From: a virus
Taxonomy: Duplodnaviria > Heunggongvirae > Uroviricota > Caudoviricetes
IMG/VR virus record: IMGVR_UViG_2534681675_000019
Direction: 5' to 3' (one strand)
Length of the DNA: 41,266 bases
Part shown: one piece after another, positions 5,417 through 38,183 of the stretch
Position numbering within the stretch: the first letter of the stretch is position 1
Layout of the letters: each line of letters starts with the position of its first letter
Notes under the pieces: model-generated
Database searches by the model: none
Seen by the model: only the letters and a program-made list of their open reading frames with translations
Told to the model about the DNA's origin: nothing
Position numbers and translations under genes: made by a program

Positions 5417-5435
5417 AACTTGTTACCTCGGCTTG

Positions 5436-5512
5436 TTACCGTTGAGGTAATAATTATGCGTATTTGGTTTGGTGTCAATAGATATGAGTTAAAAAAATTA
5501 CCCGTAAGGTAA
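5436..5512. promoter_or_regulatory. Leftward early promoter region with two TTACC-N5-GGTAA palindromic sites (OL-like)
   Basis: Sites at 5436-5450 (TTACCgttgaGGTAA) and 5498-5512 (TTACCcgtaaGGTAA), between the repressor terminator and the first leftward gene. Confidence 0.5.
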
Positions 5513-5525
5513 TTAAATAGACAAT

Positions 5526-5569: not shown

Positions 5570-6154
5570 TTATTGTTTGTTTTTTTCGTTCTGGTTGATG
5601 ACAAATTCAATGTAACTTTCGATCTTTGCTTTCTCGGTTTCAGGTAACAATGCGTAGCGCGAGCGGTCATAGTTGATAGTTGCAGGATCGTGCGGGTGAA
5701 TCAGTAGTTCATATCCGTGACGCCCGAATGCAGATGCAACATTCTCCAGGGTGGAAATGGAAACGCTGACCTCATTGTTTAACAGGCGGCTGATTGTCAC
5801 CTGGGCGACGCCGGATGCGCGGTGAAGTTTTCCCTGTGTTGAAAGGTCGCGGCTTTCGCTCATCCAGCGTTCCAGGTTGTGAGCCGCTAGCTGACCAATG
5901 TCGCTTGGGCCGACAGGCTGAAAACCTTCCTGAGAAAGCGAGCGATCGATATCAAGCCAGTTACGGGGTTTATTGGCGGCAGCTTCAATTTTTCGCGCAA
6001 CCTGGTCGCCGATAACCTTCTTGCCAAGAGCCCAGCGGTTTACCAGATTTGCCTGAGTTCCAAGTTTTTCTGCCATCCGCGTCTGAACACCATTGAATTC
6101 ACGGTCGATCAAGTCGTTGAGATTTTGCCTGCGGACGTCCTGGATACTTTTCAT
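5570..6154 (-). CDS. Prophage repressor, CI-like, tandem HTH, no peptidase S24 domain
   Basis: 194 aa; two XRE-type HTH segments (QTRMAEKLGTQANLVNRW and ASGVAQVTISRLLNNE); divergent from a Cro-like gene across an operator-rich spacer; no Ala-Gly/Ser-Lys autocleavage module visible. Confidence 0.7.
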   Translation of the reverse strand: MKSIQDVRRQNLNDLIDREFNGVQTRMAEKLGTQANLVNRWALGKKVIGDQVARKIEAAANKPRNWLDIDRSLSQEGFQPVGPSDIGQLAAHNLERWMSESRDLSTQGKLHRASGVAQVTISRLLNNEVSVSISTLENVASAFGRHGYELLIHPHDPATINYDRSRYALLPETEKAKIESYIEFVINQNEKNKQ

Positions 6155-6209
6155 TTTCTGGAAAATCGCCTCATATATGAATCAGTAGATGATTCAATTT
6201 AAAGCAATA

Positions 6210-6272
6210 TTACCCAACAGGTAAATGCACCCCATAGGTAACTATCCTTGATTTTTGTTACCTTATGGGTGA
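6210..6272. promoter_or_regulatory. Divergent immunity promoter/operator region (OR-like) with three TTACC-N5-GGTAA-type sites
   Basis: 6210-6224 TTACCcaacaGGTAA; 6227-6241 gcACCccataGGTAA (half-degenerate); 6258-6272 TTACCttatgGGTGA; between repressor start (6154) and Cro-like start (6309). Confidence 0.55.
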
Positions 6273-6586: not shown

Positions 6587-6689
6587 ATCTATTCGTACCT
6601 CAAAGGTAATAAAAAACCAAATATGGTTGATCTTTTTTTTGTGTCAGCACAAAATAACCGTAATCCCAATACTAATAACAGGGCTTACC

Positions 6690-8479: not shown

Positions 8480-8516
8480 TACCAGCGCGATAGCGCATTT
8501 TTTTACGCCTATATGA

Positions 8517-8593
8517 TTACCTTGTAGGTAATAAAATGTTCTAATTACTATTGATTTCATGTCTTATGTGGTTTTTAATTACCTAAGGGGTAA
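8517..8593. promoter_or_regulatory. Two TTACC-N5-GGTAA sites upstream of the nin-like gene block
   Basis: 8517-8531 TTACCttgtaGGTAA and 8579-8593 TTACCtaaggGGTAA; the second overlaps the ribosome-binding region of the 8597 gene. Confidence 0.5.
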
Positions 8594-8596
8594 ATC

Positions 8597-17580: not shown

Positions 17581-17873
17581 CAGATTACGAAGACGATCAA
17601 CTGAAAGAAGAAAACGCCCGTAAGCAACGTGACATGGCACAGCGTGAAATTGATGACATTCGCTTTGTCATGAGCAGTGAACATGGGCGTCGCGTTGTCT
17701 GGTCGGTGCTGGAGAAAGGCCGTGTGTTTTCCGCTATCTCACCGATGGACGCTATGGCAATGGCATTTAATGAGGGGCAACGCAATCTGGCGCTGGAACT
17801 GTTTCAGCGCGTTATGGCGCATTGCCCTGAACAGTATTTGAAGATGGCCAAAGAGGCCAGTGAACAGGAGTGA
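17577..17873 (+). CDS. Hypothetical head-assembly protein
   Basis: 98 aa, translationally coupled between portal and scaffold. Confidence 0.45.
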   Translation: MTDYEDDQLKEENARKQRDMAQREIDDIRFVMSSEHGRRVVWSVLEKGRVFSAISPMDAMAMAFNEGQRNLALELFQRVMAHCPEQYLKMAKEASEQE

Positions 17874-29153: not shown

Positions 29154-31628
29154 ATGAGACAGGAATGTATACAAGCGGTCCAGCAGGCGGCGCAGCGCAC
29201 GTTAACGGCGCGAGAAATACAGAACATTGAAGACCGCATTTATCGAAATATGCGCTCCATTGCTCGTGATGACCCGATGTCGTGGCGACAACTTTCCGAA
29301 TCAGAACGGTTGTATCGTGCAGCACAATTGGCATCTGAAGAATTACAGCGAGAAGCGGCATTAAAGAAACGTCGTGTGGCCCTCACTATAGCCGCACGTC
29401 AGAGATTGGATAAATTTATCAATAGCTATCAAGGGGCTGATGGGAAACTTGGCGCTCTTAACCGTACTATTGCTTTTAATGCAGACGGTAAATCGAATTT
29501 CCTCTCTGTTGAATCCAGAACAAAAGCCACCCGTGATTATGCATTGAGTCAATTGCAGGAGGCATTCGAAGCAGTTGATCCTCGCTTTTTTGGTCTGTTT
29601 GAAGATGAAGCGGGCGTACGTGACCTGGTATATGAAATGCGGGGGCAAAATACTGGCAATGCTAAAGCAAGAAAAGGTGCTAAGGCGTGGAGAGAAGTTA
29701 CAGAGCTGCTGCGCCGCCGGTTTAATGATGCTGGTGGGGACATTGGCTATCTCGAAAACTGGGGGATCCCTCAACATCATTCTATGGAAAAGGTTGGGGC
29801 GGTATCAAAAGATAAATGGGTTAGCGATGTTATAGGTAAGCTGGATCGCAAATATTATACCCGAGCCGATGGACAACTGATGAACGATGCCGAGTTGTCT
29901 GCATTTCTTGGAGAGGCTTATAACACGATCGCTACTGGTGGGCTGAATAAGCTTACTGATACCGGAATGCGAATTTCCGGCGCACGTGCTAACCGTGGTA
30001 ATGCATCACGACAGATACATTTCAAAGATGCAGATTCCTATCTGCAATATCAGCAACTTTATGGCGATCGCTCTCTATGGGAAATCATGGTCGGTCACCT
30101 TGAAGGTATCAGTAAAGATATTGCACTGGTGGAAACATATGGCCCAAACCCCGATCATGTTTTCCGCTCTCTTCTTGATCAGGTGAAGGCAGAAACGGCA
30201 ACAGCTAACCCGAGTAAAACCGGTAAAGTCGAGCGGCTGGCGAACAACACAGAGAATCTGTACAACTTTATTTCCGGAAAGACACAGCCTGTAGCGAATC
30301 CGCACATCGCGCGATGGTCTGACAATATCCGCAACTGGCTGGTTGCCAGCAGACTCGGATCCGCGTTGCTGTCATCGTTCTCTGATCTTGGAACCATGTA
30401 TCTGTCTGCGAAGGTGACCAACCTTCCAATGAACCAGTTATTCCGCAACCAGCTTGAAGCTATGGACCCAACGAACCGTACAGAACTTGCGCGGGCGCGC
30501 CGCGCTGGTCTGGCGATGGAATCTCTACTTGGCAGCGTTAACCGCTGGGCGATGGATAATATGGGGCCGTCAGTGTCTCGTTGGGCGGCAAAGGCGGTAA
30601 TGCGTGCCAGTGGGCTTACAGCATGGTCAGATGCGCACAAGCGCGCCTATGGCGTAACCATGATGGGAAGCCTGGGAGAAGTAGTGTCACGGACACCAGA
30701 CCTTCGTAGCCTCGATGACTCTGATTTTCGTATCCTGAAAAGCAAAGGGATTACTGACACAGACTGGAGCGTATGGAAGCTGGCGCAACAGGAGGACTGG
30801 GGGAACGGTAATAATACGATGCTGACACCGGAAAGCATTATGCGTATCCCTGATTCAGCAGTTAAACATCTTGGTGAGCCTGAACGCGTGAAATTTGAGG
30901 CAATGCGTAAACTGCTCGGTGCCGTAACTGAAGAAGTTGATATGGCTGTTATTACACCGGGAGCACGTGAGCAACTGATAACCGGTTCTGGTATTCAGCG
31001 TGGAACATGGAAAGGTGAATTAACGAGAAGTGTTTTCCTGTTTAAATCGTTCCCTATCTCGGTGGTTATGCGTCACTGGTCACGCGCTATGGGTATGCCG
31101 TCTGCTGGTGGGCGTGCGGCATATATTGCGACGTTTATTGCCAGCACGACCATTCTTGGCGCTTTGTCTCAGCAACTTAACGACCTTGCGTCTGGTCGTA
31201 ATCATCGCGAGATGACAGGAGAAGATGCTGCTAAATTTTGGCTTGGTGCTCTACTGAAAGGTGGTGGTCTTGGCCTTTACGGTGACTTTTTATTGTCAGA
31301 TCACACTAGGTACGGAAGCGGCGCGCTGGCGTCGATGCTTGGCCCGGTAGCTGGTCTGGTTGATGACGTAGTGAAGATTGCTCAGGGCATACCGTTAAAT
31401 GCTGTGGAAGGGAAGAATGAGCAGACTGGTGGTGATCTGGTTAAGCTGGGGAAAGGTCTGATGCCAGGTGCGAATCTCTGGTACTTAAAGGCGGCTCTCG
31501 ATCACATGATCTTTAACCAGATGCAGGAGTATTTTTCACCAGGCTATTTGCGTAAAATGGAGCAACGTTCGAAGAAAGAGTTTAACCAGACATACTGGTG
31601 GCGACCTCAGGATGTCACTCCGCAATAA
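29154..31628 (+). CDS. Large internal virion/ejection protein
   Basis: 824 aa, GAGAGG Shine-Dalgarno; last large gene of the core block. Confidence 0.45.
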   Translation: MRQECIQAVQQAAQRTLTAREIQNIEDRIYRNMRSIARDDPMSWRQLSESERLYRAAQLASEELQREAALKKRRVALTIAARQRLDKFINSYQGADGKLGALNRTIAFNADGKSNFLSVESRTKATRDYALSQLQEAFEAVDPRFFGLFEDEAGVRDLVYEMRGQNTGNAKARKGAKAWREVTELLRRRFNDAGGDIGYLENWGIPQHHSMEKVGAVSKDKWVSDVIGKLDRKYYTRADGQLMNDAELSAFLGEAYNTIATGGLNKLTDTGMRISGARANRGNASRQIHFKDADSYLQYQQLYGDRSLWEIMVGHLEGISKDIALVETYGPNPDHVFRSLLDQVKAETATANPSKTGKVERLANNTENLYNFISGKTQPVANPHIARWSDNIRNWLVASRLGSALLSSFSDLGTMYLSAKVTNLPMNQLFRNQLEAMDPTNRTELARARRAGLAMESLLGSVNRWAMDNMGPSVSRWAAKAVMRASGLTAWSDAHKRAYGVTMMGSLGEVVSRTPDLRSLDDSDFRILKSKGITDTDWSVWKLAQQEDWGNGNNTMLTPESIMRIPDSAVKHLGEPERVKFEAMRKLLGAVTEEVDMAVITPGAREQLITGSGIQRGTWKGELTRSVFLFKSFPISVVMRHWSRAMGMPSAGGRAAYIATFIASTTILGALSQQLNDLASGRNHREMTGEDAAKFWLGALLKGGGLGLYGDFLLSDHTRYGSGALASMLGPVAGLVDDVVKIAQGIPLNAVEGKNEQTGGDLVKLGKGLMPGANLWYLKAALDHMIFNQMQEYFSPGYLRKMEQRSKKEFNQTYWWRPQDVTPQ

Positions 31629-31637
31629 GGAACAACA

Positions 31638-32051
31638 ATGAAGGAATTATTGCTGTTATCGGTATTTTTGATATCCGCTTGCTCGACATCCTATGATGTT
31701 TATGACGGTGTTGATAAGGCATATTGCGACAAGGTTAAAATGGATTTTTCTCTTGCCAAGACGGCGAAGGATAGTTGTATTGATCACTACGTCAAGACTT
31801 ATACCAAGTCAGCATCATCGGCATCTGATATTGCTGAAGGTGCTGTGTTTGAGTGTAACAAGGTGATATCCATCGCAGCGAGTTCTTCATACGATGCTGC
31901 TGTATGTGCAATGGCTGAAAGAAACGGCATGTCTGTGCAAAAAGTTAATAGCATGATAAACAGTAATGACGAAGCCAAAATAAGAACTGATATCAGCTCG
32001 GTGAAAAAAGATGCCATGAACAGAGTTGTAAAATATCAGTCATCTTTATAA
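31638..32051 (+). CDS. Lipoprotein (signal peptide with lipobox LISAC)
   Basis: 137 aa; MKELLLLSVFLISAC; AAGGAA Shine-Dalgarno; last gene of the late operon before a terminator. Confidence 0.6.
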   Translation: MKELLLLSVFLISACSTSYDVYDGVDKAYCDKVKMDFSLAKTAKDSCIDHYVKTYTKSASSASDIAEGAVFECNKVISIAASSSYDAAVCAMAERNGMSVQKVNSMINSNDEAKIRTDISSVKKDAMNRVVKYQSSL

Positions 32052-32054
32052 GTC

Positions 32055-32090
32055 GTGACATGTCACAGGCCGCTTTCGCGGCCTTTAAAT
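32055..32090 (+). terminator. GTGACATGTCAC palindrome (copy 3) plus intrinsic terminator
   Basis: Palindrome 32055-32066, then stem GGCCGC/GCGGCC with loop TTTC (32068-32083) followed by TTTAAATTT. Confidence 0.55.
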
Positions 32091-32348
32091 TTACCGGGTT
32101 TGTTTTCGTAATTGTTCGGCACAATAGTCGAGATGTGTTTGCAGATCCTGCATAGACATCTGTGAGCTGGTGACGTAGTTAATCAGTGCAGTCAGTTCGG
32201 CAAGTGGGCCATCGACATTAAATCCATCCTTATCGAGATCCCGGAGTAATTTCATCAAGTGCGATCCTTCCACCAGTGACCTGACGCCTCCCGGCGTGTG
32301 AATCCTTTCGGTAAATCCCTCTTCCAGTGGATAGTGATACTGCTGCAT
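32091..32348 (-). CDS. Small LexA-box-associated protein (antirepressor candidate)
   Basis: 85 aa from ATG 32348 (GGAG 8 nt upstream); a near-consensus LexA box lies 20 bp upstream. The 126-aa track ORF would contain the box and is rejected. Confidence 0.5.
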   Translation of the reverse strand: MQQYHYPLEEGFTERIHTPGGVRSLVEGSHLMKLLRDLDKDGFNVDGPLAELTALINYVTSSQMSMQDLQTHLDYCAEQLRKQTR

Positions 32349-32367
32349 CTTATCTTCTCCATGCAAT

Positions 32368-32387
32368 AACTGTATGTTTATACAGTA
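32368..32387. promoter_or_regulatory. LexA (SOS) box
   Basis: AACTGTATGTTTATACAGTA matches TACTGTATATATATACAGTA at 17 of 20 positions, with CTGT-N8-ACAG intact and an AT-rich spacer; overlaps a TATAAA -10-like hexamer on the minus strand. Confidence 0.65.
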
Positions 32388-32424
32388 GCAAATAATTTGT
32401 TTGCTATCCAGCACGTTTTGCGAA

Positions 32425-32439
32425 TCACCTGAAAGGTAA
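32425..32439. promoter_or_regulatory. TCACC-N5-GGTAA site in the divergent region between the small gene and the tailspike
   Basis: TCACCtgaaaGGTAAT; 37 bp from the LexA box. Confidence 0.45.
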
Positions 32440-32543
32440 TATCTGCTCACATTAACACTCTTTCCATCCATATATGGTTTTTCAGGTAATAGAATAACCA
32501 GATATGCGGCGCAACGGGTGCTGCGACTATCTGGAGATTTAAC

Positions 32544-34796
32544 ATGACGGTCTCAACCGAAGTTGACCACAACGAATACACAGGCAATGGCGTTACGACT
32601 TCATTCCCTTATACCTTTAGGGTTTTCAAGGAATCTGATCTGGTAGTGCAGGTGGTTGACCTTGACGAAAATATCGCTGTGCTGGCTCTTGATACTGATT
32701 ACACTGTCACTGGGGCTGGTGGATATAACGGCGGTAATGTAATTCTGTCGAAGGCGTTAGCTAACGGTTACCAGATTTCTATATCACGAGAGCTCCCGGT
32801 TACGCAGGAAACTGATTTGCGTAATCAGGGGAAGTTCTTTGCAGAAGTGCATGAGGATGCTTTTGATAAGCTAACGATGCTGATCCAGCAGGTTCGAAGT
32901 TGGTTTAGCTTGGCGCTGCGCAAGCCGTCATTCGTAGCAAATTATTATAACGCGCTGAACAACTATATTCGGAACCTGAAAGACCCGGTTAACCCGCAGG
33001 ATGCAGCCACAAAGAATTATGTGGACAGCACGGCTTTATCGAACATCAACCATACCATCCGAGTTCCTGACGCTTATATCGATCCGCTGCCACCACTCGC
33101 TCAGCTTGAAGGCAGCATTATCGGCATTCAAAACGGGAAGCCTGTTCCTTTCCCTGTGCCTTCAGGAACGGCGGCGGACGTATTCAACCAGTTGGCCAGC
33201 AGCGCTGACGGGAAAGGTGATGCGCTGATAACAGTGAAGCAGCCTTACCAGGGGGCAACTTCTCTTTCGCAGCATATAAAAAATGCACAGGCTATAAGTG
33301 TTGTTGATTTTGGAGCGACAATTGATGGATCTCTCCACCCTTTAAGTGAAGTTTTCTCAACACTCTCAGCGGCACAGATGGTATATCCATTTGTTACGTC
33401 TCTCACGCAATCGTTGGATTATGCGGCGCTGCAGGCCGCATGTAATACTGGTAAAAAGGTGCTAATCCCAAAAGGTCTTGGATATTATAATGCCACAATT
33501 ATATTTAATAATTCAGTCAGAATTGTTGGTGAAGGGACTGATGCAATAAACCGTTCTCAGTCTTTCATGTCAATTGTTGGGAATATATCAGCCTTCGCAT
33601 TAGCTCAGGGTAGCTCAACATCAACGAAAATGATCCAGATTTTCATTGATGGCCTTTATATCTTTTATAACCCTGGCTCTACCCCAACAAACTCATCAAC
33701 AGACGGCGGCAAGGTAGCTTTTAATTTCTACTCAACAGTCCCTAATTCTACTGGGCTGGAAATGTCAGAAATTAAAAATTGTACAGTTCATGGGGCGTGG
33801 TCGTGCTTTAATGACCAGACAGGAACCTATCTTACAAAGCTTACGAATGTGTGGGCCAGGAACTGTCATAATGGTTTTACCAAAGGAACTGGCACAACAA
33901 TCCTTCTGGAAAGATGTTATGCATCTGGTTGTATTTCTCCTTACCAGTTTGGTTCTGTCTTCGCGGTTACAATGATTAACTGCGCGATGGATGGATCAAA
34001 TATTTCATTAAGCGCCGGGACGCTTGGAGGGGCTGGAGTTCACATCCTTAACACGCACAGTTTCAATATTATTGGCTTTGATGCAGAGGGAAACACCATC
34101 TCTACGGATGGAGCTGGAGAAGCTGCGCTGTTCCATTTTGAGAATAGTAGTGGTGGCTTATCCGGGCTTACCGCACATCAGAACAGCATGCGAAGTGTTG
34201 CGCCAAGTGATGCTGGTGTAGTTTCCTACATCAGGGCGTCAGGTAGCAGCGATGTTAAAATTGAGTCATCAGAAGATGATTTATCTGACACCAACCCAGT
34301 TGCATATACTGGGTCTGGGTATCCCATTATGTTACATGCAATAGACACAGCTAAAATAAGTGTCTTTAATAGCCGGTTCAGAGCAACCACTACAGGAACT
34401 CCTGTTTTAAGTACGCTAAGTACTGGTGATGTATCATGGTATGACTGCCCTAAAAAAACAGGACTTATCGCCAATGGTTACTCGCAGACTACATCTCAGG
34501 AAGGGTTGCAAACATCATGCTTCTCTACCAGTAAAGGCTCTACTTCTGTGGCTGCAAATACCCCGACAACACTTTTTTCTCTGCCAAATTCTCAAGGCAC
34601 TTACATTATCAGCGTTTGGGGATCTGGTAGTGGGACAAACTATGCGTCAACGCAGTTAGCAATGTATGATGGAACTTTGTATCTTACGGCATTGAAAGCT
34701 GCAGCGTTCCTGACATTTACTGTAACCGGAAGAATAGTAACCCTGACGAGCCAGGGGGCTGGAACTTTTAGTTGGACTTACACGAAAATAGGTTAA
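32544..34796 (+). CDS. Tailspike/tail fiber with T7 gp17-like N-terminal adaptor domain
   Basis: 750 aa; N-terminal YTGNGVTTSFPYTF...TDYTV...RELPVTQETDL...AEVHEDAFDKL parallels the T7 gp17 N-terminus (from memory); the C-terminal two-thirds is visibly AT-rich and Ser/Thr/Gly/Asn-rich, consistent with a receptor-binding module. Confidence 0.7.
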   Translation: MTVSTEVDHNEYTGNGVTTSFPYTFRVFKESDLVVQVVDLDENIAVLALDTDYTVTGAGGYNGGNVILSKALANGYQISISRELPVTQETDLRNQGKFFAEVHEDAFDKLTMLIQQVRSWFSLALRKPSFVANYYNALNNYIRNLKDPVNPQDAATKNYVDSTALSNINHTIRVPDAYIDPLPPLAQLEGSIIGIQNGKPVPFPVPSGTAADVFNQLASSADGKGDALITVKQPYQGATSLSQHIKNAQAISVVDFGATIDGSLHPLSEVFSTLSAAQMVYPFVTSLTQSLDYAALQAACNTGKKVLIPKGLGYYNATIIFNNSVRIVGEGTDAINRSQSFMSIVGNISAFALAQGSSTSTKMIQIFIDGLYIFYNPGSTPTNSSTDGGKVAFNFYSTVPNSTGLEMSEIKNCTVHGAWSCFNDQTGTYLTKLTNVWARNCHNGFTKGTGTTILLERCYASGCISPYQFGSVFAVTMINCAMDGSNISLSAGTLGGAGVHILNTHSFNIIGFDAEGNTISTDGAGEAALFHFENSSGGLSGLTAHQNSMRSVAPSDAGVVSYIRASGSSDVKIESSEDDLSDTNPVAYTGSGYPIMLHAIDTAKISVFNSRFRATTTGTPVLSTLSTGDVSWYDCPKKTGLIANGYSQTTSQEGLQTSCFSTSKGSTSVAANTPTTLFSLPNSQGTYIISVWGSGSGTNYASTQLAMYDGTLYLTALKAAAFLTFTVTGRIVTLTSQGAGTFSWTYTKIG

Positions 34797-35104
34797 TGTT
34801 ATTTTAGGGGAGCGATGCTCCCCATCATCAATTAAAAAATAAACTGTCCATCATTTTTTAGTTTTTTACCAAACTCCCTTGAGCCTTCCAGAGTGAAATG
34901 GCTATTGTCAAAGTAAAGATAATCACCTTTCTTTGATAGAATGTCACAATTCATAGCCTTTCCGCACTGCTCGGCAAGCGTATCTATGTATTTATACGAA
35001 TGCTGGTTGCTACTAGACTGGCCCCCTGAATCTCCAGACAACCAGTATCACTTAAATAAGTGATAGTCTTAATACTAGTTTTTAGACTAGTCATTGGAGA
35101 ACAG

Positions 35105-35470
35105 ATGATTGATGTCTTAGGGCCGGAGAAACGCAGACGGCGTACCACACAGGAAAAGATCGCAATTGTTCAGCAGAGCTTTGAACCGGGGATGACGGTC
35201 TCCCTCGTTGCCCGGCAACATGGTGTAGCAGCCAGCCAGTTATTTCTCTGGCGTAAGCAATACCAGGAAGGAAGTCTTACTGCTGTCGCCGCCGGAGAAC
35301 AGGTTGTTCCTGCCTCTGAACTTGCTGCCGCCATGAAGCAGATTAAAGAACTCCAGCGCCTGCTCGGCAAGAAAACGATGGAAAATGAACTCCTCAAAGA
35401 AGCCGTTGAATATGGACGGGCAAAAAAGTGGATAGCGCACGCGCCCTTATTGCCCGGGGATGGGGAGTAA
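35105..35470 (+). CDS. insC: IS2 transposase OrfA (InsC)
   Basis: 121 aa, [24 protein letters not shown]...; HTH; ends just past the AAAAAAG frameshift site. Confidence 0.85.
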
Positions 35471-36333
35471 GCTTAGTCAGCCGTTGTCTCCGGGTGTCGC
35501 GTGCGCAGTTGCACGTCATTCTCAGACGAACCGATGACTGGATGGATGGCCGCCGCAGTCGTCACACTGATGATACGGATGTGCTTCTCCGTATACACCA
35601 TGTTATCGGAGAGCTGCCCACGTATGGTTATCGTCGGGTATGGGCGCTGCTTCGCAGACAGGCAGAACTTGATGGTATGCCTGCGATCAATGCCAAACGT
35701 GTTTACCGGATCATGCGCCAGAATGCGCTGTTGCTTGAGCGAAAACCTGCTGTACCGCCATCGAAACGGGCACATACAGGCAGAGTGGCCGTGAAAGAAA
35801 GCAATCAGCGATGGTGCTCTGACGGGTTCGAGTTCTGCTGTGATAACGGAGAGAGACTGCGTGTCACGTTCGCGCTGGACTGCTGTGATCGTGAGGCACT
35901 GCACTGGGCGGTCACTACCGGCGGCTTCAACAGTGAAACAGTACAGGACGTCATGCTGGGAGCGGTGGAACGCCGCTTCGGCAACGATCTTCCGTCGTCT
36001 CCAGTGGAGTGGCTGACGGATAATGGTTCATGCTACCGGGCTAATGAAACACGCCAGTTCGCCCGGATGTTGGGACTTGAACCGAAGAACACGGCGGTGC
36101 GGAGTCCGGAGAGTAACGGAATAGCAGAGAGCTTCGTGAAAACGATAAAGCGTGACTACATCAGTATCATGCCCAAACCAGACGGGTTAACGGCAGCAAA
36201 GAACCTTGCAGAGGCGTTCGAGCATTATAACGAATGGCATCCGCATAGTGCGCTGGGTTATCGCTCGCCACGGGAATATCTGCGGCAGCGGGCTTGTAAT
36301 GGGTTAAGTGATAACAGATGTCTGGAAATATAG
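35428..36333 (+). CDS. insD: IS2 transposase OrfB (InsD), DDE catalytic domain
   Basis: 301 aa, [30 protein letters not shown]...; overlaps orfA in the -1 frame at AAAAAAG (35422-35428). Confidence 0.85.
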
Positions 36334-38063
36334 GGGCAAATCCAGCTACCAAGATAGCCTTTTATCGTATTGTTAATTTCAACTCTACTATTGTCATAAT
36401 ACTTTTTAGAGTATTTATTTATCCCATCAATTGTGTTTACGCCAGATTTAAAAGCAGACTTAATTATTTCCATTGGCTGTGCCGTAAACTTCATCTTAGG
36501 CCCAAATACAATAACTTCTCCTTTAGTCCTCTCCTGTATTTTGCCTATAGAGTAAAGCATCCCGAACAGATCGCCAACGCCATAATCATCATGAAGGATT
36601 ATAATGTTAGCTTCAGCTATGGCTGGAGATGAGATCACGTCATTGAATATTTTTTTGCACTTTTCTACATAGGGCATGTCGTTTGGTGTATAACCAAAGT
36701 TTGAACATAAGTTTGTAGTTCTTATATAAGTTATATCACCCTTCATCCCATTTTCAGTAAGTGCATAAGTCAGATCTATGCCATGAGAATTACCGATTAT
36801 TACTATTTTTTTGTCACCTGTCTTCGGTACAGGGTGAGGCTTGTCTCCATCAACCCAATACCTGTTCATTTGTTCTTTTAGCTGTTCGGACGTCATTGTG
36901 GCAAACGAAAACCTTGATGGAATTCCAGATAGCAATAGTACAGCGAAGCACAAACCAACTACACCACCTACAGGTAGCACGATTGAAGTTAATTCATTCA
37001 AGGACCTGCCGTTTTTAAATTTTGAAAGTGCCTTTCTTGAAGGGTTTTCAATTAAATAAAATGATGCGGCACCAATAAGAATTGATAAGGCAACACCTGA
37101 TACTGTATAAACCATATCATCCATCTTATTCATTGACATATAGACAACTATGGGCCAGTGAACCAGATATACCGAGTATGAAATTTTCCCAACCCATTGA
37201 GATAATGCATTATCAAGTAACAGGTTATCTTTACATCCAAGATAAATGACAAAGAAAGTAGAAACGACTGGTATTAAGGCAAGATACCCAGGCCACTTCA
37301 TTAAGCTGTTAAGCAAGACTATCCCCGATACTGCAAAGGCTATGGCAATCCATCTAAATACAGCAGTGCGTTTTGAATTTTGTATAGTAGGAAGAAGGTA
37401 GGCAAGGCCGCCAGCCAGCATCTCCCAAGCTCTGCTTGACAGAAGATAAAATGCAGCCCCCTGATTATTATAAGAAAGATACACTGAGGCAGTAAATGAT
37501 ATAATTGCAAGGATGGCAACAACATACCTTATATGCTTAGCGCCCAATAGCTTTGCAATTGCCATCATTATGATTGGATATACCATGTAAAACTGCCACT
37601 CTACAGAAAGCGACCATGTATGAAGAAGCCATTTCTGCTTTGATGCAGTGTCAAAATAATCAATGCTATGGTAATACTCAACGTTTGAGAAAAATAAAAG
37701 GCTACTTCTTACGTGTTGAGCCAGGTATTCATATTCAGAAGGCAAAAGAATGAAGTAACCAACTATCAGAACAGCAACTGAAACTACAGTTAAAGCTGGT
37801 ATAATCCTTCTTGCCCTATCAAGATAAAATCCTAACAGTGAAAAGTTTCCATTAGATATCTTTGTGTAAATTATTCCAGTCATCAGATACCCTGATATAA
37901 CAAAGAATATATCTACGCCTGAAAACCCACCAGAAAACCCTTTGACTCCGAAGTGATAAAGGACAACTGCCATGACAGCAATAGCCCTGAGTCCGCCTAT
38001 ATCAGTTCTGTATTTTAAAGAAGACATAATCGCTATCGTTTTGAGTAAGATGCGTTAATGATA

Positions 38064-38078
38064 TCACCTTTAGGGTAA
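38064..38078. promoter_or_regulatory. TCACC-N5-GGTAA site in the divergent region between the acyltransferase and the lysis genes
   Basis: TCACCtttagGGTAAT. Confidence 0.45.
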
Positions 38079-38183
38079 TTTCGTTAAGAGTTATCCGATC
38101 AAAATTAATCCACATATGGTTTATTGTGTATGATGAACTCACCAACTAAGGGGGTTCTTTATGCACAATAAACGGTGGTCACT

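Follow-up and report, generated by a model that had tools for sequence, protein, structure and literature searches.

How can a prophage whose repressor has no recognizable self-cleavage domain answer the SOS response of its host? The question is raised by an 85-aa minus-strand gene, ant, in a 41,266-nt stretch of viral DNA (IMG/VR record IMGVR_UViG_2534681675_000019; hereafter the window, meaning the whole stretch). The original prediction for this locus was a LexA-repressed antirepressor directed against a non-cleavable repressor. Our analysis supports it, the locus being orthologous to the Ant/Rep system of the Salmonella phage SPC32H. The features on which the argument draws are collected in Table 1.

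Table 1. Features of the ant and rep loci, with related genes of other phages (window positions unless another sequence is named).
Feature	Sequence	Coordinates	Strand	Basis or remark
rep, 194-aa prophage repressor, presumed Ant target	window	5570..6154	-	PDB and HTH matches
ATTACC-N5-GGTAAT copies	window	5435-5451, 5497-5513, 6209-6225, 6594-6610, 8516-8532, 8578-8594		
ATTACC-N5-GGTAAT copies, continued	window	12409-12443, 15574-15590, 32424-32440, 38063-38079		
OL-like operator copies, two (5435-5451, 5497-5513)	window	5435..5513	.	downstream of rep, upstream of leftward early operon
OR-like operator copy	window	6209..6225	.	rep / cro-like intergenic region
G+C-rich hairpin AGGCCGC-TTTC-GCGGCCT	window	32067..32084	.	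terminator scan; between convergent late operon and ant
ant, 85-aa antirepressor, SPC32H Ant (SPC32H_020) orthologue	window	32091..32348	-	homology
Ribosome-binding site GGAGAA	window	32355..32360	-	6 nt before ATG, read from sequence
LexA (SOS) box AACTGTATGTTTATACAGTA; ant-sense TACTGTATAAACATACAGTT	window	32368..32387	.	unique in window; arms conserved
Inferred extended -10, TGc TACTGT	window	32382..32390	-	TG and TACTGT conserved in all orthologues
Inferred -35, TGGATA	window	32405..32410	-	CTGGATAG invariant; CTGGAAAA in Klebsiella phages
Rep-type operator ATCACCTGAAAGGTAAT	window	32424..32440	.	between ant promoter and tailspike gene; invariant in alignment
Tailspike gene	window	ATG at 32544		divergent from ant, sharing its intergenic region
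Bro-N antirepressor, Tyrion gp20	L005	2073-2777		Ant-like C-terminal domain
Bro-N antirepressor	L009	2070-2759		Ant-like C-terminal domain
Bro-N antirepressor, ZX5 ORF4	L012	2374-3069		Ant-like C-terminal domain
Bro-N antirepressor, phiV10 p23	L003	2071-2655		only first ~30 residues of Ant-like domain

The ant gene and its setting

DNA matches to phiV10, TL-2011b, ZX5 and others place the window with the phiV10/epsilon15-like podophages of the genus Uetakevirus, as an Escherichia coli prophage. The chromosome of E. coli AF5 carries a near-identical prophage, whose PGAP annotation we compared. Annotated there are an integrase, RecT and a replication module, the terminase, portal and capsid genes, injection proteins and tailspike, and an acyltransferase and lysis genes; the host genes yfgI and yfgH come next. 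In the window the acyltransferase gene is split by IS2 at about 35030-36360 (ORFs 35060-35470 and 35428-36333; NCBIfam IS2 TnpA, E=4e-83, and TnpB, E=1e-219), leaving minus-strand fragments at 34832-35041 and 36258-38027, and the AF5 copy is intact. If this acyltransferase modifies the O-antigen, that function is probably inactivated in the IS2-bearing lysogen.

The isolated minus-strand position that had been claimed for ant holds, with the gene lying between a terminator hairpin and the divergent tailspike gene. The hairpin is a probable bidirectional terminator; an identical one stands 3′ of ant in SPC32H, and in epsilon15 this hairpin bears a terminator annotation. In the window as in SPC32H, a large injection-protein gene comes first, then a short variable slot, ant on the other strand and finally the tailspike gene; in both, ant stands alone on its strand with the end of the late operon on one side and the tailspike gene on the other. 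A 12-bp palindrome, GTGACATGTCAC, occurs in three exact copies in the window (12321-12332, 14585-14596 and 32055-32066) and one near copy (17629-17640), where 0.13 would be expected. The copy at 32055 sits between the stop codon of a 137-aa gene and the terminator hairpin, and the palindrome is also found 3′ of the ant terminator in SPC32H.

The gene had been called unannotatable, which was wrong because its product is 89% identical to a named and crystallised protein. Ant shares 74 of 83 residues with SPC32H Ant (E=2e-57), whose database label is 'ant: anti-repressor protein'. Its match to PDB 5D50 chain E ('Anti-repressor protein', 86 aa in the crystal) has E=1.6e-47. The homology extends over the whole length of the protein. 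Residues 2-85 are also covered by phrog_450 (E=1e-47), a family without an assigned function. Profile searches of Pfam and NCBIfam returned no model for Ant, and a Pfam DUF724 match was dismissed as noise (17.6 bits against a cutoff of 38.4). The absence of a model from Pfam and NCBIfam accounts for the label 'hypothetical protein' that the gene carries in phiV10, epsilon15, ZX5 and RefSeq E. coli genomes. On this homology, the gene is the E. coli copy of a characterised antirepressor, SPC32H Ant.

The slot between the injection-protein gene and ant, downstream of the latter, varies among these phages. SPC32H has a 46-aa membrane protein there and the window a 137-aa predicted lipoprotein; in phiV10, Tyrion, ZX5 and one Klebsiella phage the slot holds a Bro-N 'anti-repressor' gene on the ant strand. 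The 137-aa ORF (31638-32051, plus strand, opposite to ant) starts with a lipoprotein-like signal, MKELLLLSVFLISAC. Its product belongs to phrog_8691, of unknown function, all of its Pfam matches fell below cutoff, and NCBIfam gave no model; it may be a cargo or superinfection-exclusion gene.

The Bro-N proteins were examined in ZX5 (ORF4), Tyrion (gp20), Klebsiella phage ST11-OXA245phi3.2 and phiV10 (p23, truncated). In their last 75-80 residues they are homologous to Ant over its full length (38-42% identity; phrog_450, E about 1e-35), and an N-terminal Bro-N domain, about 145 aa long, sets them apart from Ant. Because these genes directly follow ant on the same strand and encode an Ant-homologous C-terminal domain, the relatives have two Ant modules in tandem. 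The 85-aa protein of the window matches the C-terminal module only. A phmmer search of the six-frame segments of the window with Tyrion gp20 as query recovered the ant ORF and found neither a second Ant module nor a Bro-N domain.

The LexA box and the ant promoter

The claimed match of AACTGTATGTTTATACAGTA to the E. coli LexA consensus at 17 of 20 positions was reproduced, and its claimed position upstream of the ATG at 32348 stands, with 19 nt between box and ATG. It is the sole site in the 41-kb window within three mismatches of the consensus TACTGTATATATATACAGTA, and 100 dinucleotide-preserving shuffles contained none. With a symmetrised matrix built from 20 classical E. coli SOS boxes, which gives approximate scores, the box reached 26.2 bits (heterology index about 2.6), comparable to umuDC and dinD. 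With the same matrix, the runner-up in the window reached 10.4 bits and the highest-scoring site of 200 shuffles 18.1 bits. The motif CTGT-N8-ACAG occurs three times in the window; the two other occurrences (15045 and 19587) were rejected, having G+C-rich spacers, lying inside genes and scoring at most 10 bits.

We aligned the tailspike-ant intergenic region of ten phages of E. coli, Salmonella, Enterobacter and Klebsiella and compared positions in eleven. Phages of E. coli, Salmonella and Enterobacter retain both arms, CTGT and ACAG, and in the Klebsiella phages one arm reads ATGT, not CTGT. The eight central bases vary among the phages (ATAAACAT, GTATTTAT, ATGTTTAT, ATAAGCAT and ACATATAT), and fixed arms around a drifting centre are the pattern that a LexA site should show. 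In the sense of ant the box reads TACTGTATAAACATACAGTT in the window and TACTGTATGTTTATACAGTG in SPC32H; the 16-nt core is identical in opposite orientation, with the central 4 nt inverted relative to ant (ATAAACAT in the window versus ATGTTTAT in SPC32H). Compared with its sibling SPC32H, phage SPC32N has ACAG changed to AAAG in the right arm, at a consensus-critical C, at a cost of about 6.5 bits. According to Kim & Ryu 2013, this mutation of the SPC32N box reportedly makes Ant constitutive and the phage lytic.

The TATAAA hexamer that had been proposed as a -10-like element is present inside the box (ant strand, 32382..32377), but it is not conserved in the orthologues; it falls in the variable centre, and we rejected it as the -10. 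The conserved elements are TGGATA, at -62 from the ATG in all 11 phages, and TGn-TACTGT, separated from it by a 17-nt spacer; the last four bases of TACTGT form the left arm of the box. Because a strict sigma-70 scan of 31900-32650 called no promoter, we infer from conservation alone that these elements are the -35 and extended -10 of ant, and the LexA box overlaps the promoter so defined. The spacer between them is filled by a 10-nt inverted repeat, TAGCAAATAA / TTGTTTGCTA (32386-32406, 90% complementary, 1 nt apart), which is present in the window, phiV10 and ZX5 and absent from SPC32H and epsilon15.

The repressor, its operators and the proposed switch

The presumed target of Ant is the repressor Rep, which matches PDB 5D50 chain A, 'Repressor', over residues 1-190 of 194 (E=4e-42). 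It had been described as having two HTH domains and no autocleavage domain, and both statements held: HTH_3 was matched at residues 106-147 and a second, weak HTH-type match at 21-61, and a Pfam profile search, which could have overturned the description, gave no Peptidase_S24 match at E<=0.1. The PGAP annotation of the near-identical AF5 prophage likewise lists no S24 protein. The genome that carries ant therefore also carries a cognate Rep-family repressor without S24. Rep is 100% identical to the Rep proteins of phiV10 and ZX5 and 42% identical to that of SPC32H, a figure that rises to 52% in the N-terminal DNA-binding half and falls to 38% in the C-terminal Ant-binding half.

Allowing up to two mismatches, the inverted repeat ATTACC-N5-GGTAAT occurs in 14 copies in the window, where 1.03 would be expected. 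Nearly all copies are intergenic and stand before operons, namely the early left and right, replication, terminase, portal, tailspike/ant and lysis operons. The repeat also clusters around rep in SPC32H, and epsilon15 has three annotated repressor sites at the OL-like position. These copies are probably the operator set of Rep. Repressor sites spread over a whole genome recall the 'stoperators' of mycobacteriophage L5. With one operator consensus in common, the Uetakeviruses of E. coli and Salmonella have Ant proteins that are 89% identical and Rep proteins that are 42% identical, and the contrast in divergence raises questions about Ant specificity, cross-induction and cross-immunity.

The proposed switch would work as follows. 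In the lysogen, host LexA would occupy the box at 32368-32387 and, because the box overlaps the extended -10, block transcription of ant. DNA damage would activate RecA and lead to the self-cleavage of LexA, upon which the 85-aa Ant would be made. Ant would bind Rep, which has no self-cleavage domain of its own, and strip it from the ATTACC-N5-GGTAAT operators, so that the early and late operons would be derepressed and lytic development would begin. In view of what it has in common with SPC32H, namely both proteins, the box, promoter geometry and gene order, the locus is very probably the SOS-sensing arm of the lysis-lysogeny switch, orthologous to SPC32H Ant/Rep/LexA, with the same pathway operating here.

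In SPC32H, the SOS response and LexA self-cleavage lead to Ant synthesis and inhibition of the repressor (PMC7380047, citing Kim & Ryu 2013), which Ant inactivates by protein-protein contact (PMC7380047, PMC9638917). Rep binds DNA as a tetramer, and tetrameric Ant binds two Rep dimers and breaks the tetramer (PMC9638917, PMC9986798); the C-terminal domain of Rep serves both tetramerisation and Ant binding (PMC9986798). By analogy with these results, we infer that LexA binds at the box studied here and that Ant inactivates the Rep of the window. The weakest link is the Ant-Rep contact, an extrapolation from SPC32H Rep, whose Ant-binding half shares only 38% of its residues with that of the window Rep. 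Overexpression of ZX5 ORF4 lowered the number of lysogens about 1000-fold (PMC9782041); the C-terminal module of ORF4 is 42% identical to Ant over 74 residues, and, the ZX5 Rep being identical to that of the window, this result lends the contact some indirect support.

Two other readings concern the step from SOS to Rep. Ant could be LexA-controlled without inactivating the resident Rep, or without doing so alone, and act chiefly in trans, cross-inducing co-resident prophages through other repressors of the Rep family, or hit a different target. The contrast between the conservation of Ant and the divergence of the Ant-binding half of Rep would fit such a role, as would the second Ant-module protein (the Bro-N fusion) that adjoins ant in relatives, and the antirepressors of Gifsy prophages are documented to act in trans (PMC3121763). 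However, every Uetakevirus examined has both ant and a Rep-family repressor, and an Ant-module protein countered lysogeny in ZX5. Moreover, because this prophage has no other Ant module, Bro-N gene or S24 domain, it would still need a route from SOS to Rep, and we regard a mainly trans-acting or partial role as unlikely. Rep might instead be inactivated by RecA-stimulated self-cleavage as in lambda, the commonest mechanism in temperate enterobacterial phages, with the small gene as an accessory SOS gene. This is highly improbable: a lambda-type C-terminal S24 domain was not found in the Pfam search, and the alignment with the crystallised SPC32H Rep takes in the 194 residues from one end to the other, all accounted for by the Rep fold; in SPC32H Rep the C-terminal part is the tetramerisation and Ant-binding domain.

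The other two readings concern the box itself, and to each we give scarcely any credence. The palindrome could have arisen by chance, or it could act on the divergent tailspike gene; in favour are the intergenic region that the two genes share and the failure of the strict sigma-70 scan to call a promoter. Yet its 26 bits exceed a shuffle maximum of 18, its distance to the ant ATG is a constant 37 nt in 11 phages, the tailspike ATG being 157 nt away, and the boxes of SPC32H and SPC32N differ precisely at the consensus-critical C. The box would fall inside a coding region if the real product were a 126-aa ORF starting at 32471, a frame that is indeed open upstream in the window, ZX5 and SPC32H. 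In epsilon15, Tyrion and BUCT554, however, a stop codon closes this frame 6 codons before the shared ATG, and in the Klebsiella phages one does so 13 codons before it, which speaks against the longer ORF as the real product; the upstream region also evolves as non-coding DNA with islands of conserved motifs. The ATG of ant (CAT on the plus strand) occupies 32346-32348 and its ORF ends at 32091, the extent called by PGAP in the AF5 prophage; it is preceded by a GGAG that is invariant in 10 aligned phages, and the crystallised protein has 86 aa. The 85/86-aa product is thus the real one.

A Rep-type operator, ATCACCTGAAAGGTAAT, has its centre about 57 nt upstream of the start inferred for ant transcription and suggests an additional level of control for which the simple model has no explanation. 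In epsilon15 the orthologous site, next to gp19/ant, is annotated 'protein_bind repressor'. The operator could repress the tailspike promoter, ant or both. Because a Rep-type operator stands at a fixed distance in all relatives, a double lock of LexA and Rep on ant is conceivable, and if it were true, a fall in Rep would feed back positively on ant. Likewise, because Ant is 89% conserved across Rep proteins that are 42% identical and is also fused to Bro-N, the Ant proteins of E. coli and Salmonella Uetakeviruses might cross-induce prophages of the other group. We hold this extended model, with a double lock, positive feedback and Ant as a portable Rep-binding module, only tentatively and consider it rather less probable than its absence.

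Comparison with known systems and significance

The SPC32H switch was reportedly described by Kim & Ryu in 2013 (J Virol) and its structure by Kim et al. in 2016 (PDB 5D4Z/5D50). The system studied here resembles it in belonging to the same genus, in its 89% identical Ant and its full-length Rep homologue, in the distance between box and ant start and the arms of the box, in the divergent position by the tailspike gene and in the ATTACC-N5-GGTAAT operator family. It differs in its E. coli host, in a Rep that is less conserved overall and most divergent in its C-terminal half, and in the gene that fills the slot downstream of ant (a 137-aa lipoprotein gene versus the 46-aa membrane-protein gene of SPC32H).

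The original prediction had likened the locus to Gifsy-type phages and 186 Tum; the mode of working is the same, but the direct relative is SPC32H Ant. Searches with Pfam, PHROGs and NCBIfam profiles placed Ant and the Gifsy/Tum antirepressors in no shared family. Ant is also said by Kim & Ryu to be structurally distinct from Gifsy GfoA/GftA and 186 Tum. The antirepressors of Gifsy-1/-2/-3 and Fels-1 (GfoA, GftA, GfhA and FsoA) are likewise small and expressed from a LexA-repressed promoter (Lemire et al. 2011, PMC3121763), and they likewise bind non-cleavable repressors and are encoded far from the immunity region (PMC3121763). Unlike ant, the Gifsy genes are preceded by a dinI homologue within an operon under LexA control, and their repressors belong to the DicA/RacR group (PMC3121763). 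186 Tum and N15 AntC are also LexA-controlled antirepressors that bind the repressor; Tum has 146 aa with a DinI-like second half (PMC3121763), whereas profile searches found no DinI-like part in Ant. The P22 Ant of immI is another late-region antirepressor near the tailspike of a short-tailed phage, but it is a far larger protein, under the control of the phage repressors Mnt and Arc rather than of LexA (PMC7380047). Because the P22 c2 repressor is cleaved, P22 Ant is dispensable for SOS induction (PMC7380047).

Antirepression by Ant, Rep and LexA is thus already known from SPC32H: that phage of the same genus was shown to be induced in the SOS response by way of an antirepressor that LexA represses (PMC7380047), and the Rep-Ant complex has been solved (PMC9638917, PMC9986798). 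The E. coli copy is nevertheless still labelled 'hypothetical protein' in databases. In the epsilon15 record the repressor is linked to 5d50_A, gp19 (Ant) is hypothetical and no LexA site is annotated. A 2022 study of the ZX5 switch names the Bro-N protein alone as anti-repressor and mentions neither the small ant gene nor LexA nor SPC32H (PMC9782041). The LexA/Rep double control and the Ant-centred wiring may be absent from the literature.

Still of interest are the annotation gap, the possibility that ant is under double control, the use of Ant as a module and a possible cross-reactivity between phages. The practical value lies in annotating the gene in phiV10, epsilon15, ZX5 and the RefSeq E. 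coli genomes that label it hypothetical. With the region 31600-32560 as query, 539 of 5426 complete E. coli genomes gave a match, most of them to the ant-to-tailspike half only. For the engineering or induction of phiV10-type phages, ant is the gene to delete or express, and its recognition extends the SOS regulon of E. coli by a gene carried on a prophage.
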